From sequence record ON528745: 64,000 nucleotides of DNA; one strand, written 5' to 3'. The stretch is from Shigella phage ESH35. The notes below the pieces were generated by a model. That model did not search any database and was not told the origin of the DNA. It was given only the letters and a program-made list of their open reading frames with translations. This document shows positions 31,592 through 40,218 of this stretch, piece after piece; position 1 is the stretch's first letter, and every line of letters begins with the position of its first letter. The position numbers were made by a program, and so were the translations under genes.

Positions 31592-32215
31592 ATGATTATT
31601 AATCTTGCAGATGTTGAACAGTTATCTATAAAAGCTGAAAGCGTTGATTTTCAATATGATATGTATAAAAAGGTCTGTGAAAAATTTACTGACTTTGAAC
31701 AGTCAATTCTTTGGCAATGTATGGAAGCCAAAAAGAATGAAGCTCTTCATAGGCAGTTGAATAAAATCATTAAAAAGCATTTAACTAAATCACCTTATCA
31801 GTTATATCGTGGTATATCAAAATCGACAAAAGAACTCATTAAAGATTTACAAGTTGGAGAAGTGTTTTCAACGAACAGGGTAGATTCATTTACTACTAGT
31901 TTGCACACAGCATGTGGTTTTTCTTATGTTGAGTATTTCACTGAAATAATATTTCGCTTAAAAACTGATAAAGCTTTTAATTATTCTGACCATATCAGCG
32001 ATATTATACTTTCTTCTCCTAATACTGAGTTTAAGTACACGTATGAAGATACTGGTGGGCTAGATTCAGAGCGTACTGATAACTTAATGATGATTGTGCG
32101 TGAACAAGAATGGATGATTCCAATTGGAAAGTATAGAATAACTTCTATTTCAAAAGAAAAATTACACGATTCATTTGGAACATTTAAAGTGTATGATATT
32201 GAGGTAGTTGAATGA
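31592..32215 (+). CDS. modB: ADP-ribosyltransferase (ModB-like)
   Basis: 207 aa; R...S-T...E catalytic triad pattern; paralogue of next gene. Confidence 0.65.
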   Translation: MIINLADVEQLSIKAESVDFQYDMYKKVCEKFTDFEQSILWQCMEAKKNEALHRQLNKIIKKHLTKSPYQLYRGISKSTKELIKDLQVGEVFSTNRVDSFTTSLHTACGFSYVEYFTEIIFRLKTDKAFNYSDHISDIILSSPNTEFKYTYEDTGGLDSERTDNLMMIVREQEWMIPIGKYRITSISKEKLHDSFGTFKVYDIEVVE

Positions 32216-32814
32216 AATATTCAGCAATGCAATTAAAAGATTTTAAAATCAAATCAATGGATGCATCTGTGCGTGCTTCTATTCGTGAAGAATTACTTTC
32301 CGAAGGATTTAATTTATCTGAAATTGAACTTTTAATTCATTGTATTACTAATAAACCAGACGATCATTCTTGGTTAAATGAAATAGTCAAATCTCGTTTG
32401 GTTCCAAACGATAAACCTCTTTGGAGAGGTGTTCCAGTTGAGACTAAACAGGTGTTAAATCAAGGAATTGATATTATTACATTTGATAAAGTAGTATCAG
32501 CTTCATATGATAAAAATATAGCTCTACATTTTGCTTCTGGATTAGAATACAACACACAAGTTATTTTTGAATTCAAAGCTCCTATGGTGTTTAATTTCCA
32601 GGAGTATGCTATAAAAGCTTTACGTTGTAAAGAATATAGTCCGAGTTTTAAGTTTCCGGATAGCCATCGCTATCGTAATATGGAATTAGTTTCAGATGAA
32701 CAAGAAGTAATGATACCAGCTGGAAGTGTATTTAGAATTGCGGATAGATACGAGTATAAAAAGTATTCAACATACACTATCTATACTCTTGATTTTGAAG
32801 GATTTAATCTATAA
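32212..32814 (+). CDS. modA: ADP-ribosyltransferase (ModA-like)
   Basis: 200 aa; same triad pattern; ATGA overlap with modB. Confidence 0.65.
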   Translation: MKYSAMQLKDFKIKSMDASVRASIREELLSEGFNLSEIELLIHCITNKPDDHSWLNEIVKSRLVPNDKPLWRGVPVETKQVLNQGIDIITFDKVVSASYDKNIALHFASGLEYNTQVIFEFKAPMVFNFQEYAIKALRCKEYSPSFKFPDSHRYRNMELVSDEQEVMIPAGSVFRIADRYEYKKYSTYTIYTLDFEGFNL

Positions 32815-33678: not shown

Positions 33679-33990
33679 ATGGTTTATGTATATGCGATAG
33701 TTTACCGAGACAAAGACGGATTTACGGCGCCAGTTCCACTTGATGAACATCGTCCTGCTGTGTTTTTTGAAAGAGAGATTGCTGATAGAGTTTTTACTAC
33801 TCTCAAAGACCAATATAAACTAGCTTTAGGTATGGGAATTCCAAGACTAGTTGAGACTCCACGCAAGTTTTGGTTTAATAAAATAGAAGTTAAACATGTT
33901 AAGCCTGATGTAGATACACAAAGATTATATCAACGAATTCTAGATACTGGGCGTATTGTTAGTATTCCAATTGCAGGGACTTTCCGATGA
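33679..33990 (+). CDS. hypothetical protein (103 aa)
   Basis: ATG ORF overlapping dda start. Confidence 0.45.
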   Translation: MVYVYAIVYRDKDGFTAPVPLDEHRPAVFFEREIADRVFTTLKDQYKLALGMGIPRLVETPRKFWFNKIEVKHVKPDVDTQRLYQRILDTGRIVSIPIAGTFR

Positions 33991-35306
33991 CATTTGATGA
34001 TTTGACAGAAGGCCAGAAAAACGCCTTTAACATCGTTATGAGGGCTATTAAAGAAAAGAAACATCATGTAACTATTAATGGACCTGCTGGTACTGGTAAG
34101 ACTACTCTTACTAAGTTCATCATTGAAGCTTTAATATCAACAGGCGAAACTGGTATCATTTTGGCAGCTCCTACACATGCAGCTAAAAAGATTCTTTCAA
34201 AACTGTCGGGGAAAGAAGCGAGTACTATTCACAGCATTCTTAAAATTAACCCGGTAACATATGAAGAAAATGTTCTTTTTGAACAGAAGGAAGTACCAGA
34301 TTTAGCTAAATGCAGGGTATTAATCTGCGATGAAGTGTCAATGTATGATAGAAAGCTATTTAAAATTCTGCTTTCAACTATTCCACCTTGGTGTACTATA
34401 ATTGGAATAGGGGATAATAAGCAAATTAGACCTGTTGATCCAGGAGAAAATACTGCTTATATCAGTCCATTCTTTACACACAAAGATTTTTATCAGTGTG
34501 AACTTACTGAAGTTAAACGCAGTAATGCTCCTATTATTGATGTAGCTACTGATGTTCGTAACGGTAAGTGGATTTATGATAAAGTTGTTGACGGGCATGG
34601 AGTACGTGGATTTACTGGTGATACCGCTTTACGCGATTTTATGGTAAATTATTTTTCAATCGTCAAATCGCTAGATGATTTGTTTGAAAATCGCGTAATG
34701 GCATTTACGAATAAATCTGTTGACAAGTTAAACAATATTATTCGCAAAAAGATTTTTGAAACTGATAAAGATTTTATTGTCGGTGAAATTATTGTAATGC
34801 AAGAACCGTTAATTAAAACATATAAAATTGATGGAAAGCCTGTATCAGAAATTATTTTTAATAACGGACAATTAGTTCGTATTATAGAAGCAGAGTATAC
34901 ATCGACGTTTGTTAAAGCTCGTGGTGTTCCTGGAGAATATCTAATTCGTCATTGGGATTTAACAGTAGAAACTTACGGTGATGATGAATATTATCGTGAA
35001 AAGATTAAAATAATTTCATCTGATGAAGAGTTATATAAGTTTAACCTATTTTTAGGTAAAACGGCAGAAACTTATAAAAATTGGAACAAAGGCGGAAAAG
35101 CTCCGTGGAGTGATTTTTGGGATGCTAAATCACAGTTCAGTAAAGTGAAAGCACTTCCTGCATCAACATTCCATAAAGCTCAGGGTATGTCTGTAGACCG
35201 TGCTTTCATTTATACGCCTTGTATTCATTATGCAGATGCTGAATTAGCTCAACAACTTCTTTATGTTGGTGTTACCCGTGGTCGTTATGACGTATTTTAT
35301 GTGTGA
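33987..35306 (+). CDS. dda: SF1 DNA helicase Dda
   Basis: 439 aa; Walker A GPAGTGKTT; matches recalled T4 Dda. Confidence 0.92.
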   Translation: MTFDDLTEGQKNAFNIVMRAIKEKKHHVTINGPAGTGKTTLTKFIIEALISTGETGIILAAPTHAAKKILSKLSGKEASTIHSILKINPVTYEENVLFEQKEVPDLAKCRVLICDEVSMYDRKLFKILLSTIPPWCTIIGIGDNKQIRPVDPGENTAYISPFFTHKDFYQCELTEVKRSNAPIIDVATDVRNGKWIYDKVVDGHGVRGFTGDTALRDFMVNYFSIVKSLDDLFENRVMAFTNKSVDKLNNIIRKKIFETDKDFIVGEIIVMQEPLIKTYKIDGKPVSEIIFNNGQLVRIIEAEYTSTFVKARGVPGEYLIRHWDLTVETYGDDEYYREKIKIISSDEELYKFNLFLGKTAETYKNWNKGGKAPWSDFWDAKSQFSKVKALPASTFHKAQGMSVDRAFIYTPCIHYADAELAQQLLYVGVTRGRYDVFYV

Positions 35307-35312
35307 GGATAT

Positions 35313-35573
35313 ATGATTAACATCAATTCAAAATATTTAAATCGTCTAATAGATGGTATAAGGAAGCATACTAATAAGCAAGATAATCTCGATGTTATGG
35401 TAACAGGAGCTGAGCTCCTTCATAAGCTTTATCTTATAAGTGATACTATATTAGCAATTAAACGAATTGAAAAACAATCATATCACAGTAATACAGATAC
35501 GGTAATTACACTAGATGAAAGTGTCTGTAAATTACTAATTAAATTTGAGGAAGCTATTCGTGGAAATAACTAA
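35313..35573 (+). CDS. hypothetical protein (86 aa)
   Basis: ATG ORF. Confidence 0.45.
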   Translation: MININSKYLNRLIDGIRKHTNKQDNLDVMVTGAELLHKLYLISDTILAIKRIEKQSYHSNTDTVITLDESVCKLLIKFEEAIRGNN

Positions 35574-35805
35574 AGACCAGTTTTATCTGCTTCAAGATAA
35601 AGTGAGCGAAATTTATGAAATAGCTTATAGTAAAAATCGTAGAAATGTAAAAATTGAATCTGGCAAGTTAATGCTTCAATTAGAAGAAATTGAACGAGAT
35701 TTAATTGCGTTAGAATTCTTTTGTGGTGAAGTGAAAACTGTTACAATCAGTGATTATGTTTTAGGCGAAATTAGCCATCTTTATAAGGCGATTATTAATG
35801 ATTGA
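35545..35805 (+). CDS. hypothetical protein (86 aa), paralogue of 35798..36040
   Basis: shared C-terminal motif (TISDYVLGEISHLYKAI vs YIQDYTVGQIRDLARKV); start uncertain. Confidence 0.4.
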   Translation: MRKLFVEITKDQFYLLQDKVSEIYEIAYSKNRRNVKIESGKLMLQLEEIERDLIALEFFCGEVKTVTISDYVLGEISHLYKAIIND

Positions 35806-36040
35806 ATTAAGTTGGTATCAGTTTAAATCTCTTATGGCAAATGTTAAAGCTGTCATTGAAGAAAATCCAGGACCTGAAAATGTAACTATTCGTGAAAAAG
35901 CTTCAAAGATAGTATACAGTCTTGAAGAGATGCAAAAAGATATTGAATCTATGGCAAAATTTATTGATGAGCCCATTAATAAAGTTTATATCCAAGATTA
36001 TACTGTAGGTCAAATTCGCGATTTAGCGAGGAAAGTTTAA
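35798..36040 (+). CDS. hypothetical protein (80 aa), paralogue of previous ORF
   Basis: ATG ORF; ATGA overlap with dexA. Confidence 0.45.
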   Translation: MIELSWYQFKSLMANVKAVIEENPGPENVTIREKASKIVYSLEEMQKDIESMAKFIDEPINKVYIQDYTVGQIRDLARKV

Positions 36041-36723
36041 TGTTTGATTTTATTATAGATTTTGAAACGATGGGAAGCGGTGAAAAAGCAGCTGTTATTG
36101 ATTTGGCTGTAATTGCTTTTGACCCTAACCCGGAAGTTGTTGAAACATTCGATGAACTAGTTTCACGTGGCATTAAAATTAAATTTGACTTAAAAAGTCA
36201 AAAAGGACATCGTCTTTTTACTAAAAGCACTATCGAATGGTGGAAGAATCAATCTCCTGAAGCTAGAAAAAATATTGCACCATCAGATGAAGATGTAAGC
36301 ACTATCGATGGTATTGCAAAATTCAATGATTACATCAATGCACATAACATCGATCCTTGGAAATCTCAAGGTTGGTGCCGTGGAATGTCGTTTGATTTTC
36401 CAATTTTAGTCGATCTCATTCGCGATATTCAACGTCTTAACGGCGTTTCCGAGAATGAGCTTGATACATTTAAGTTAGAACCGTGTAAATTCTGGAATCA
36501 ACGCGACATTCGTACTAGAATTGAAGCACTTCTCCTTGTTCGTGATATGACCACTTGTCCTCTTCCAAAGGGAACTTTAGATGGATTCGTTGCACATGAT
36601 TCTATTCATGACTGTGCGAAAGACATCCTGATGATGAAGTATGCTTTGCGATACGCTATGGGTCTTGAAGATGCTCCGTCAGAGGAAGAGTGCGATCCTC
36701 TGTCTCTTCCAACAAAACGATAA
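36040..36723 (+). CDS. dexA: exonuclease A
   Basis: 227 aa; DEDD-type motif FETMG near N-terminus. Confidence 0.85.
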   Translation: MFDFIIDFETMGSGEKAAVIDLAVIAFDPNPEVVETFDELVSRGIKIKFDLKSQKGHRLFTKSTIEWWKNQSPEARKNIAPSDEDVSTIDGIAKFNDYINAHNIDPWKSQGWCRGMSFDFPILVDLIRDIQRLNGVSENELDTFKLEPCKFWNQRDIRTRIEALLLVRDMTTCPLPKGTLDGFVAHDSIHDCAKDILMMKYALRYAMGLEDAPSEEECDPLSLPTKR

Positions 36724-36730
36724 AAAGTTG

Positions 36731-36759
36731 TTTACTTCCTCGGTTAGTTGTGGTATTAT
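36731..36759 (+). promoter_or_regulatory. T4-type early promoter
   Basis: TTTACT, 17 bp, TGgTATTAT. Confidence 0.55.
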
Positions 36760-36786
36760 AACACCATAGCTACTGAGGATAATAAA

Positions 36787-37299
36787 ATGAAAATTTATCG
36801 TGTTGAATCATCGTTTAGCGCATTAAATGATGATAGTGGTATAATGAAAATTAGGCAAGAGTTATGTGTTCAATCAACTCCTTATCGTGGATTTGATTCT
36901 ATGAAAACTCGAACTTGGCTAAAATTTTGCGGTATTAATTCATCGTCATTTCATCATCATAGCGATAATTATGAAAGCCATGAAAGTATTCCTATTCCAC
37001 ACGATGATAAGTTATTAGTTGAAAATGCTAATGATGCTATTAAAACTAAATGGAATAAAGATTATTCACGAATTGAAAATTATATTCCATTGTGGTTTAT
37101 TGCATTATATCATTTTGCTTTCGCTAGTGAATATGATATAATGAGATGGTTTACTCGAGAAGAGCGTGAAGACTTAAAAGATCGTGGAATGTACATTGCG
37201 ATTTATGAAGTGCCAGATGATCAAGTTATCATTGGTGGGCATCAAGTAATGTTTCGCAAATCGCATGCCGAATTAAAAGGCTTTATTACCTTAGATTAA
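36787..37299 (+). CDS. hypothetical protein (170 aa) with His-rich segment
   Basis: internal ATG downstream of promoter; HHHSDNYESHESIPIPH. Confidence 0.45.
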   Translation: MKIYRVESSFSALNDDSGIMKIRQELCVQSTPYRGFDSMKTRTWLKFCGINSSSFHHHSDNYESHESIPIPHDDKLLVENANDAIKTKWNKDYSRIENYIPLWFIALYHFAFASEYDIMRWFTREEREDLKDRGMYIAIYEVPDDQVIIGGHQVMFRKSHAELKGFITLD

Positions 37300-37308
37300 A
37301 GGAAAATT

Positions 37309-37809
37309 ATGATTAAAATTAATACTACGTATCAAATGAAAAAACCATCTGAAATTGATTTCCAGACAATGTCGAATACGACTGATAGCAAGTTTTGGGA
37401 ACTTCTTGGTACAACTGGCGGATATCCTTTTACTGTTATTAGTGTTAATAGCGGAATTCTCATTGGTACAGTGTACATGGAAATTAGAAACTATTATGGA
37501 AGGGTATCATCATTCATCATCTATGAAGAAGATTTCAATTTATTGACAGAAATTGAAAAAGAAGAACAAGAAAAATCCCATATTGATATGGATTTAGTTT
37601 CTATGTATGTAACACCAGTTGAAAAAATTGAAGACCCGACTGATTTGTTGTGTAAGGCAGTTTATATTCGTCGTCCATTCGCGAATCCGATTGGCGGTTG
37701 GGTAACTGATCAGTGGATTGAAGATGGTGTTGAACTTCTGAACGTAGTTCATGCTGGAGAGTACTCTGTAGTTCCTCGCAGCGCAGTGATTAATGTTCGT
37801 GTAAGCTAG
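37309..37809 (+). CDS. hypothetical protein (166 aa), paralogue of 37883..38374
   Basis: shared C-terminal region (TDQWIEDGVELLNVVHAGEYSVVP vs TDQWVEDGVKLYNAVFLGTYKVIP). Confidence 0.5.
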   Translation: MIKINTTYQMKKPSEIDFQTMSNTTDSKFWELLGTTGGYPFTVISVNSGILIGTVYMEIRNYYGRVSSFIIYEEDFNLLTEIEKEEQEKSHIDMDLVSMYVTPVEKIEDPTDLLCKAVYIRRPFANPIGGWVTDQWIEDGVELLNVVHAGEYSVVPRSAVINVRVS

Positions 37810-37838
37810 TTTACAAACTCTTGGGATCAGAGTATAAT
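37810..37838 (+). promoter_or_regulatory. T4-type early promoter
   Basis: TTTACA, 17 bp, TATAAT. Confidence 0.6.
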
Positions 37839-37882
37839 GGTCCTGCGGAGTATAAAATCTTTTTAACAAGTGAGAGATAATT

Positions 37883-38374
37883 ATGAATATTAATATCGGT
37901 GAAATTGCTCGTGTATCTGATAAATCCCGTTCTAAAGCAGCAGGAAAATTGGTTGAAGTCGTAAGCATTCAGCTTAAACATGGTGTTAAAGATGAAGATT
38001 CTGAAGTAAAAGTGCGTATCATTCCTAAAGATGGAATGTCTAAACCTCAGTTTGGTTATGTTCGATGGAAATTTCTTGAGCCTGCGTTTTTGAAAGCTGT
38101 TCCCGCTAAAGGAATTGAAACGATTGATACTTCGCATGTAGGTGTAGACTTTAAGTGGAAACTTGGTCAAGCTATCAAGTTCGTTGCTCCTTATGAGTTT
38201 GAATTTACTGAAGGTGAGGAAGGTGTTGTTAACCGTACTCGCGCTATGTGTGCATACATTACTGATCAATGGGTAGAAGATGGCGTTAAGTTATACAACG
38301 CGGTATTTTTAGGAACATACAAAGTCATTCCTGAAAGTTGGATTAAACACTACAGCAAAGCTCGCTATGCATAA
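37883..38374 (+). CDS. hypothetical protein (163 aa), paralogue of 37309..37809
   Basis: see previous ORF. Confidence 0.5.
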   Translation: MNINIGEIARVSDKSRSKAAGKLVEVVSIQLKHGVKDEDSEVKVRIIPKDGMSKPQFGYVRWKFLEPAFLKAVPAKGIETIDTSHVGVDFKWKLGQAIKFVAPYEFEFTEGEEGVVNRTRAMCAYITDQWVEDGVKLYNAVFLGTYKVIPESWIKHYSKARYA

Positions 38375-38405
38375 AGTTTAATTTTTTTTTCATAAAACTA
38401 TATAC

Positions 38406-38448
38406 ATCAGTAGTTGATTATGGTACTATATCAATATCAACTACTGAT
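38406..38448. repeat. 13-bp perfect inverted repeat (ATCAGTAGTTGAT / ATCAACTACTGAT) flanking a -10-like TGGTACTAT
   Basis: read directly; right arm equals the leader of the early-promoter cassettes. Confidence 0.7.
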
Positions 38449-38472
38449 ACAGAAAACAACTTGGAGAATAAA

Positions 38473-38742
38473 ATGGAAAACTTAATTATCATCGAGCAAT
38501 CTTTCAACGATTATGGTATGGCTTACGGTTATCGTGCGATAATGGAAGATTCTCGTGGATGTGTTATCGATATTGCTGAATGTAAAGATTTACTGCAGCT
38601 TTTGAAGATTGTTCGCAAAAATTGGGATTGTGAAAACATTAAAGCTCGTGTTGTTACAGAAGAAGAAACTGTTTTTCATGATGTAAAATTCGCTAAAGGT
38701 GCTGCTACTCTTCTGAAACGTATCGCTCCACTGTTCAATTAA
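38473..38742 (+). CDS. hypothetical protein (89 aa)
   Basis: GGAGA SD and leader identical to that of ORF 19941. Confidence 0.45.
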   Translation: MENLIIIEQSFNDYGMAYGYRAIMEDSRGCVIDIAECKDLLQLLKIVRKNWDCENIKARVVTEEETVFHDVKFAKGAATLLKRIAPLFN

Positions 38743-38755
38743 TGAGGAAATTGTA

Positions 38756-38971
38756 ATGAAACGTAAAATTGTTCAGAATTGCACTAATGACGAATTTGAA
38801 GATGTATTATTTGATCCAGATTTGGTAGTGGTTCAAAAGGAACATACCGTTAAGTTTACTCACTTGACTTCGGTTTATGTGTATGAAAAGGTTGGTGATA
38901 AACAACCAATTTACGGTGTATTTCGTGAAATTACTGAAGATGGCACAACTTACTGGAAGGAAATTTATTAA
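38756..38971 (+). CDS. hypothetical protein (71 aa)
   Basis: ATG with GAGGA SD. Confidence 0.45.
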
Positions 38972-39396
38972 TGGCTATTAAATTTGAAGTTAATAAATGG
39001 TATCAATTTAAAAATAAACAAGCTCAAGAAGATTTTATCAAGGACCATACTGAAAACGGAATTTATGCACGACGTCTTGGTATGGAACCTTTTAGAGTTA
39101 CAGATATTGACTATCTTGGTCGTCCTACTAAAATTATGTCATTTACTGGCACAATTGGATATGCAACACATGGTGATATCCTTGACGAAAACTTTATCTG
39201 GCTCTCTACTAACGAAGCCGAGTTCTTTGATGAAGTGGAAAATCCATATCAGGCAGCTGAAGAGCAAGAGCAGGAAGAGAAAGAGCAAGAACAAATAGAA
39301 GATTTCACAGAATTTCCTGTCATGAAAGTTACTATTGAAAATAATGAACAGGCATGGTCCTTGTATCAAATGCTGAAAGCACACTTTAAGGAATAA
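38971..39396 (+). CDS. acidic protein (141 aa) at the T4 goF position
   Basis: size and synteny; [12 protein letters not shown] tract. Confidence 0.4.
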
Positions 39397-39398
39397 TT

Positions 39399-39575
39399 AT
39401 GCCAACGTATGATTATAAATGCCAATCCGAAGATTGCGGGCATGAATATGAAAAAATTAAAAAGATTTCTGAACGAGAAAATGATGTTTGCCCTAAATGT
39501 CATCGTTTGTCTACTCGTCGGCCTTCTGCTCCTAAGCATGTGAATGGCGGTTTTTACGATTTACTTAAAGGGTGA
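39399..39575 (+). CDS. zinc-ribbon protein (FmdB-like, 58 aa)
   Basis: CQSEDCGH...CPKCH double CxxC pattern. Confidence 0.5.
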   Translation: MPTYDYKCQSEDCGHEYEKIKKISERENDVCPKCHRLSTRRPSAPKHVNGGFYDLLKG

Positions 39576-39577
39576 TT

Positions 39578-39952
39578 ATGTTTAAAATCGGTAAGAAATA
39601 TCGTGTTCGCGAAGGTGAAGAAAAGAAATATCTACTTTCTGCTAGTAATAGGAATGGTTCTATTAATGCCGTAATATCTACAAGCGAATTTATCGTTGAA
39701 GATATGAAAGGTCATAATGTTACAATGATTAGTACAGCAACTAGCAGAAATGCTGGAAAAATTCTTCACAGTCTGCGGAGTGAAGTTCTAATTTATGATG
39801 AAGAATTTGACTTCTTCGAAGAAGTTCCTGAAGATTTTGATTTTGAATGCACTATCACTATGAAATCTGGTGACCCTCTTTCTTTTACAGTTAAAGATGA
39901 AAGAAGCCGTTTGAGAATTATTAGTCTCCTTCAAGCCATTAAATTTAAGTGA
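39578..39952 (+). CDS. hypothetical protein (124 aa)
   Basis: internal ATG of track ORF 39572..39952. Confidence 0.45.
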   Translation: MFKIGKKYRVREGEEKKYLLSASNRNGSINAVISTSEFIVEDMKGHNVTMISTATSRNAGKILHSLRSEVLIYDEEFDFFEEVPEDFDFECTITMKSGDPLSFTVKDERSRLRIISLLQAIKFK

Positions 39953-40218
39953 AAATTATGAAATATATTAATCGTTCTATCGCGGCATTAGTATTAGCAG
40001 TGTCTTTAGCAGGATGTACTGATGCTGATAATGCAACCAAAGTTTTATCTTCAAGTGGTTTTACTAATATTGAAATCACTGGATATAATTGGTTTGGTTG
40101 TTCTGAAAATGATTTCCAACATACTGGATTTCGTGCTATTGGACCTACTGGGCAGAAAGTAGAAGGAACAGTATGTTCTGGGCTGTTCTTTAAGGATTCA
40201 ACTATTCGTTTTAAATAA
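39949..40218 (+). CDS. putative lipoprotein (89 aa)
   Basis: signal peptide with lipobox LAGC. Confidence 0.5.
   Translation: MKIMKYINRSIAALVLAVSLAGCTDADNATKVLSSSGFTNIEITGYNWFGCSENDFQHTGFRAIGPTGQKVEGTVCSGLFFKDSTIRFK

Follow-up and report, generated by a model that had tools for sequence, protein, structure and literature searches.

Did the small paired genes in the early region of a T4-like phage arise as whole-gene tandem duplicates that diverged under pressure from the host? The DNA of Shigella phage ESH35 (sequence record ON528745) raises this question for two pairs of adjacent open reading frames (ORFs). The stretch that we analyzed, called the window throughout, comprises 64,000 nucleotides (nt), given as one strand, 5' to 3'. 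It belongs to a Tequatrovirus and has about 98% identity with the phages AR1, RB18 and wV7. The first pair, MotB.1/MotB (37309–37809 and 37883–38374), lies downstream of the exonuclease gene dexA, the second, DexA.2/DexA.1 (35545–35805 and 35798–36040), directly upstream of it. All four ORFs were present at the coordinates given for them in the initial annotation, which had suggested tandem duplication followed by divergence for both pairs.

Both pairs are, with high probability, old protein-level paralogues in a variable early block that runs from dda through dexA to gene 39, where a C-terminal domain has been shuffled and a DexA-associated family stands in tandem. Both relationships are already catalogued, i.e., that of MotB and MotB.1 is published and DexA.1 and DexA.2 have been merged in one Pfam family. 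The paralogy as such hence has little weight as a discovery, and the value of the analysis lies in its side results: a third member of the DexA family, a second GoF-like gene, and an extra G in the T4 reference sequence of motB.1. T4 gene names were assigned from synteny with the annotated AR1, T4 and wV7 records. Family alignments were built from 65 IMG/VR loci around dexA, together with AR1, T4 and database homologues.

MotB.1, MotB and their N-terminal domains

BLASTP aligned residues 130–158 of MotB.1 (166 residues) with residues 124–152 of MotB (163 residues), with 16 of 29 positions identical (E = 9e-10). This core corresponds to window positions 37696–37782 and 38252–38338, respectively. 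The Smith-Waterman score of 98 compares with a mean of 29 (standard deviation 4.5) for shuffled sequences, i.e., a Gumbel p of 2e-9. Profile–profile comparison with hhalign extended the match to residues 82–163 of MotB.1 and 65–157 of MotB (probability 99.5%, E = 3e-23). The homologous C-terminal halves claimed in the initial annotation are thus borne out (residues 82–166 of MotB.1, 37552–37809; MotB C-terminal domain, 38075–38353). Moreover, the similarity is not confined to a short low-complexity stretch; the common block, TDQW[IV]EDGV.L.N.V..G.Y.V[IV]P.S, is not of low complexity.

Curated profiles gave a graded picture. The Pfam family motB (PF17613, cutoff 25 bits) matched MotB over the whole profile with 321.5 bits and MotB.1 with 33.4 bits at profile positions 114–153 only, and phrog_1671 (MotB-like) spanned residues 79–162 of MotB.1. 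MotB.1 is thus a partial member of the MotB family, through its C-terminal domain only. In an AlphaFold2 (AF2) model, residues of about 111–165 of MotB.1 form a compact five-strand barrel, and the nearly invariant columns of the MotB.1 family all fall within residues 110–158. Sequence searches with MotB and MotB.1 against PDB chains found no significant match, and an NCBIfam scan returned noise only. Our analysis reproduces the relationship published by Patterson-West et al. (2021, Viruses 13:84; PMC7827196), who described a common C-terminal domain, different N-termini and a possible duplication.

Downstream of dexA, 68 surveyed loci carry one to three tandem ORFs with the common C-terminal domain, which stands behind a MotB-type, a MotB.1-type or another N-terminus. 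At two loci, L027 (5736–7207) and L029 (1341–2866), the MotB-type C-terminal domain occurs in three ORFs in succession, behind a MotB.1-type N-terminus in one of them and behind a MotB-type N-terminus in the other two. Both loci lack a DexA.1-family gene, and dda directly abuts dexA there.

The N-terminal domains of MotB.1 and MotB could not be related to each other (hhalign probability 0.06%). MotB matched the MotB N-terminal profile, and its N-terminal part is KOW-like; MotB.1 does not have the KOW-like domain. The N-terminal domain of MotB.1 (residues 1–82, 37309–37554) is LSm/SH3-like and aligned with that of GoF over 77 columns (hhalign probability 95.7%, E = 8e-9). Its AF2 model shows a five-strand bent antiparallel sheet with one helix, i.e., a small β-barrel. 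An LSm-like N-terminal family comprising GoF and MotB.1 as well as Frd.2 has been described by Kim et al. (2025, CSBJ 27:2051; PMC12152347). The MotB.1 family comprises proteins of 119 to 252 residues whose N-termini represent several types unrelated to one another. Since the two N-termini are unrelated and that of MotB.1 is related to GoF, duplication and shuffling at the level of domains describes the pair better than a simple whole-gene tandem duplication. MotB would accordingly join the small β-barrel C-terminal domain to a KOW-like N-terminus, and MotB.1 appears as a chimera that carries the same domain on the LSm/SH3-like N-terminus common to GoF and to ORF 39572–39952. The interval between dexA and gene 39 is hence better seen as a set of shuffled small β-barrel domains than as a set of duplicated genes.

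A Foldseek search of BFVD with the two-domain MotB.1 model found MotB-type proteins with TM-scores of about 0.3, from which superposition of the N-termini cannot be read because the model has a flexible linker. This linker is longer than in T4, with an in-frame insertion of 66 nt at 37553–37618 that adds EEQEKSHIDMDLVSMYVTPVEK. A motif resembling the insert, I[DT]DMD..MY....P, occurs at the extreme N-terminus of 180-residue MotB.1-like proteins of other phages. The linker motif, hIDMDLvsMYvtPV, is predicted to be disordered here, and we draw no conclusion from its recurrence.

ORF 39572–39952 (126 residues; AR1 ar1_005, a gene that T4 lacks) is a second GoF-like gene and thereby a further paralogue in the interval between dexA and gene 39. 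Its residues 1–86 matched a GoF N-terminal profile built without its orthologues (E = 1.6e-6 to 4e-11), and comparison with shuffled sequences gave p = 3e-4 against MotB.1 and 4e-3 against GoF. Narrow orthologue sets of GoF and ar1_005 gave a weak hhalign match (E = 0.06), and the link needed a diverse profile. A local Pfam scan found no match for either GoF or this ORF. Full-length iteration from ORF 39572–39952 also reached MotB, via multidomain proteins, and was disregarded for N-terminal homology. Only gene 39.2 (39399–39575) separates the ORF from goF (38971–39396). With it, two interlinked domain families account for four of the genes that lie between dexA and gene 39. At the goF position, several other T4-like genera have an ORF with two tandem LSm-like N-terminal domains, i.e., an internal domain duplication (L008 6992–7672, L010 6459–7247, L012 6987–7883, L040 6455–7132, and others).

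The T4 reference sequence of motB.1 (NC_000866.4, our locus L002, 3292–3651, minus strand) carries one extra G compared with the window, GGATTGGAAGATGG versus GGATTGAAGATGG (window 37715–37727). It cuts T4 MotB.1 to 119 residues (13.8 kDa) within the TDQWIEDGV core motif; the DNA beyond it still encodes the remaining domain in another frame. The 76-nt T4 segment found exact matches in the two copies of the reference record only, and 13 other records of T4, T4T, RB55 and RB59 match over 75 nt without the extra G. In T4T and in re-sequenced T4, MotB.1 is annotated with 143 residues. The extra G is probably a sequencing error or a strain-specific frameshift. Kim et al. defined T4 sequences by NC_000866.4 coordinates, used gene-synthesized plasmids and reported a 13.8-kDa MotB.1 monomer (PMC12152347). 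The coordinates and this mass suggest that they may have assayed the truncated protein; MotB.1 assays built from NC_000866.4 may generally have used a protein without most of the common domain.

Between the two genes, at 37810–37838, lies the sequence TTTACA-17-TATAAT, which agrees with 11 of the 12 consensus positions; a 4-kb scan for sigma-70 matches ranked it first. Its −10 hexamer and spacer are perfect, and its −35 hexamer agrees with the Escherichia coli consensus at five of six positions. GTTTAC is the usual −35 element of T4 early promoters, and the motB promoter sequence agrees with it. The claim that the second copy has its own perfect early promoter at 37810 is therefore right in that this is the known motB early promoter, but "perfect" holds only for the −10 element and the spacer. 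T4 has both hexamers in identical form with one base changed in the spacer, and the promoter is annotated in wV7. In T4 it has been mapped by primer extension, and RegB cleavage of a GGAG in the motB leader has been characterized experimentally (PMC1702504). In the window, GGAG at 37847–37850, followed by an A-rich tract, is presumably the counterpart of that site, judging from its conservation with T4. Since motB has an early promoter to itself and a leader sensitive to RegB, its expression would be partly uncoupled from that of motB.1.

Directly upstream of motB.2 (36787–37299), a promoter-like sequence with an extended −10 element (TTTACT-17-TATTAT, TG present, 36731–36759) would be a candidate driver of motB.2 and motB.1. 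Past motB, 30 nt beyond its stop codon, lies a hairpin at 38406–38448 with a perfect 13-bp inverted repeat and an inner 5-bp stem. The 101-nt stretch containing it (38372–38472) folds with −23.6 kcal/mol (z = −5.6 against shuffled sequences). It is not a canonical terminator, since the T-run stands before and not after it.

The DexA.2/DexA.1 family upstream of dexA

DexA.2 and DexA.1 aligned by BLASTP over their whole length with 20 of 80 residues identical (25%, E = 5e-8; p = 6.5e-8 against shuffled sequences). Their orthologue sets aligned over 78 columns (hhalign E = 7e-6), and iterated hidden Markov model (HMM) searches started from either protein converged on the same 52 ORFs. A shared C-terminal motif had been noted for this pair; the homology holds, but the similarity is not confined to the C-terminus and runs from end to end. 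Against single-copy members from other genera, DexA.1 and DexA.2 likewise aligned end to end (hhalign E = 1.9e-17 and 8e-11, respectively). DexA.2 likely starts at GTG 35560 (35560–35805, 81 residues) and not at TTG 35545, where the mechanical ORF begins. GTG 35560 is the annotated dexA.2 start in T4 and wV7, and GAGGAA stands at 35547–35552. The gene dexA.1 (80 residues) shares 8 nt at its start with the end of dexA.2, and its stop and the start of dexA overlap in TAATG. The AF2 model of DexA.1 has a predicted local distance difference test score (pLDDT) of 94 and the order strand-helix-helix-strand-helix.

Homologues of DexA.2 and DexA.1 at 88–99% identity carry the precomputed Pfam annotation PF26837 (Phage_T4_Y00H_G), so Pfam has already merged both. 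We take this name to join the UniProt-style names of T4 DexA.2 (Y00H) and DexA.1 (Y00G). Our local Pfam scan gave no match for the DexA-family ORFs; the Pfam copy scanned lacks the PF26837 model. The family is narrow. A HMMER search with its profile matched 27 clusters among 1.84 billion representative proteins, which apart from a few fragments or a fusion comprise about 73–86 residues. Two long repetitive proteins among the matches (P0131, P0132) were judged false positives.

Directly upstream of dexA.2, ORF 35313–35573 (AR1 ar1_017, absent from T4) is a third, very diverged tandem member. A family HMM built without its group matched residues 1–82 at profile positions 1–77 (E = 1e-5 to 2e-6), and hhalign aligned it end to end with diverse single-copy members of other genera (probability 95%, E = 3e-8). 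In addition, phrog_5263 matched this ORF, DexA.2 and DexA.1. Its close homologues P0094 and P0095 have no Pfam match on record.

Members of the family occurred at 37 loci, with one copy in 28, two in five and three in four of them. In 34 of these 37 cases, the last copy runs up to or into the start of dexA; members that were found without dexA anchoring also sit between dda and dexA. At several loci without a detected member, an 80-residue ORF with a similar pattern occupies the same place. In a neighbour-joining tree of about 80 sites, a clade with 97% bootstrap support unites DexA.1 and DexA.2 with one single-copy lineage, and this argues for a genuine tandem duplication. DexA.2, DexA.1 and ORF 35313–35573 are three tandem members of one family of about 80 residues. 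Most T4-like genera have one copy of it, nearly always with translational coupling to dexA, and DexA.2 and DexA.1 were presumably duplicated in or near the Tequatrovirus lineage.

DexA.2 protein has been detected in T4 infection, and along with just one other T4 protein it was found to be conjugated to cGAS by Cap2 of the cyclic oligonucleotide-based antiphage signaling system (CBASS; PMC10097602). A single transcript from dda.1 to dexA.1 has been proposed. RefSeq/NCBI names the 81-residue DexA.2 "dextranase", and other records name DexA.1 and DexA.2 "exonuclease". These names look like transfers from the gene symbol and do not appear to reflect functional evidence.

Turnover, selection and origin of the paralogues

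The block begins with dda (33987–35306), followed by ORF 35313–35573, dexA.2, dexA.1 and dexA. The last (36040–36723, annotated as exonuclease A) is conserved as the gene next downstream of the small-gene family. After motB.2, motB.1 and motB come ar1_010 (38473–38742), cef (38756–38971), goF, 39.2, ORF 39572–39952, 39.1 (39949–40218) and gene 39 (from 40285). On the plus strand lie ORF 35313–35573, dexA.2, dexA.1, dexA, both halves of motB.1, motB with its promoter, leader GGAG and C-terminal domain, goF and ORF 39572–39952. With megablast, window positions 35300–38400 matched 548 phage records, the best being the Tequatroviruses HEMP5, AR1, wV7 and RB18 at 97–99% identity.

We compared orthologues from seven Tequatrovirus loci for their ratio of nonsynonymous to synonymous substitution rates (dN/dS). 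Values were 0.00 for dexA and 0.02 for dda, compared with 0.11 for dexA.1, 0.15 for the alignable part of motB.1, 0.17 for dexA.2, 0.24 for goF and 0.25 for motB. This indicates purifying selection on the accessory genes, though less stringent than on dda and dexA. Between the paralogues themselves, synonymous sites are saturated (the proportion of synonymous differences, pS, is 0.75 in the MotB core and 0.57 in the DexA pair), and their dN/dS is hence uninformative. Gene content also varies: ar1_017, ar1_010 and ar1_005 each occur in only some relatives, and identity in motB.2 and motB.1 falls abruptly, from about 100% to some 63% or 52%, between phages whose dda and dexA are 99–100% identical. 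An accessory region with fast turnover fits the variation of gene content, domain content and length among close relatives, and for such a region host-driven selection is plausible.

Import is a possible alternative for part of the locus, although we consider it less probable than not having occurred: ORF 35313–35573, this allele of MotB.1 and ORF 39572–39952 might have come from other T4-like phages, and the arrays would then be mosaics. The abrupt drop in motB.2 and motB.1 identity next to nearly invariant genes points in this direction. So does the distribution of ORF 35313–35573, which occurs in only three of seven close relatives, at 97–100% identity, and which falls outside the DexA.1/DexA.2 clade in a weak grouping with a single-copy lineage. 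However, this placement of the third copy comes from a tree of about 80 sites and lacks bootstrap support, no closely matching donor lineage was found, and the interval contains neither flanking DNA repeats nor mobile-element genes. ORF 35313–35573 may be either an older copy or one acquired by recombination.

We regard it as doubtful that both pairs arose by whole-gene tandem duplication and then diverged under host-driven diversifying selection. Members of a pair are adjacent, on the same strand and alike in length (166 and 163 residues; 81 and 80 residues), the accessory genes have dN/dS values above those of dda and dexA, close relatives vary in gene content, and for DexA.2 and DexA.1 the well-supported clade agrees with such an origin. 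Tandem duplication with divergence, as the initial annotation had it, therefore stands for DexA.2/DexA.1 but not for MotB.1 and MotB as whole genes, where the N-termini are unrelated, that of MotB.1 matches GoF, and the same C-terminal domain stands behind other N-termini in many relatives. As to diversifying selection, orthologue dN/dS of 0.11–0.25 means purifying selection, and from the saturated synonymous sites of the paralogues no selection signal can be read. Direct repeats at the DNA level between the paralogues were not found, only short chance matches.

The reading that we prefer, a shuffled C-terminal domain together with a tandem DexA family, has several points against it. At the level of the fold all four halves of MotB and MotB.1, the N-termini included, are small β-barrels, and MotB.1 and MotB may descend from a very old whole-gene duplication beyond the reach of sequence methods. 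The third DexA-family copy gave no match in direct hhalign comparisons with the DexA.1 and DexA.2 orthologue sets, the profiles being of low diversity (about 1.2–1.5 effective sequences, Neff); in hhalign it was linked to them through the diverse single-copy profile only, and it lies outside their clade as described above. The C-terminal domain of MotB has been called an OB-fold from HHpred (PMC7827196), and our model of the MotB.1 domain suggests a five-strand SH3/Tudor-like barrel rather than an OB-fold. Deletion of motB.1 from T4 had no laboratory phenotype (Kim et al. 2025; PMC12152347), no function has been demonstrated for MotB.1 or any DexA-family protein, and the idea of a constant anchor with variable modules, set out below, is drawn from the conservation pattern.

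That the similarities arise by chance or as an artefact of composition in an AT-rich genome has next to no probability: the BLAST block of the first pair is short (29 residues) and the second pair is only 25% identical, but shuffling gave p = 2e-9 and 6.5e-8, profile–profile E-values were 3e-23 and 7e-6, and the independently curated families PF17613, PF26837 and PHROGs 1671 and 1700 unite the same proteins as our analysis.

What the shuffled domain and the tandem family might do can be sketched tentatively. MotB binds DNA tightly and non-specifically and increases phage fitness; it co-purifies on DNA with H-NS and StpA and alters the H-NS footprint (PMC6070864, PMC7827196). DNA binding and H-NS association are known for T4 MotB only, and MotB.1 is placed in the family by its sequence. 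The common C-terminal domain might serve as a shared anchor that binds nucleic acid or a common partner, and exchangeable N-terminal domains might confer different specificities. For the DexA family, a role as small helical partners or modulators that are co-produced with Dda and DexA is conceivable, with low confidence. A more far-reaching version, to which we give little credence, casts the Y00H_G proteins as partners or regulators of Dda and DexA or as immunity decoys, and the MotB-type C-terminal domain as a DNA or nucleoid anchor with swapped N-terminal effectors. These roles are compatible with the coupling to dexA, the conjugation of DexA.2 to cGAS, and the variation of copy number and N-termini in near-identical phages. 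If they held, the expansion of Y00H_G from one to three copies in some Tequatroviruses would be an adaptation to different hosts. AR1-like phages, which carry Y00H_G in a third copy and GoF-like genes in a second, offer a natural series of one, two and three copies for deletion work.

Comparison with known systems

All-against-all BLASTP of the 272 window ORFs found only four paralogue pairs. Besides MotB.1/MotB, these were modA/modB, a pair of long minus-strand ORFs that probably encode tail fibres, and a marginal match (E = 0.006). The tandem paralogues directly upstream of srd, ORFs 31592–32215 and 32212–32814, share 27% identity over 182 residues (E = 5e-14), and T4 and AR1 place modA/modB at this position. 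Like MotB.1/MotB, T4 modA/modB are a tandem pair of early-gene paralogues, and their presence in the window means that tandem duplication recurs in the early region. In contrast to MotB.1/MotB, they are homologous as whole genes and have a known enzyme activity, that of an ADP-ribosyltransferase.

T4 MotB and MotB.1 themselves agree with the window in gene order, promoter and common C-terminal domain. MotB.1 of the window differs from that of T4 in its 166 residues, in the 22 residues inserted into its linker and in having its C-terminal domain complete. The PF26837 family is matched by homologues of DexA.1 and DexA.2 of the window, in the same position between dda and dexA; the window has in addition a third tandem member without a recorded Pfam match. 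Finally, the N-terminal domain of MotB.1 resembles the GoF/MotB.1/Frd.2 family in its alignment to the GoF profile and in its predicted bent five-strand sheet with a helix. It differs from the family as described by Kim et al. in that the window has an additional member, ORF 39572–39952, which they did not name, and in that some relatives have two such domains per ORF.

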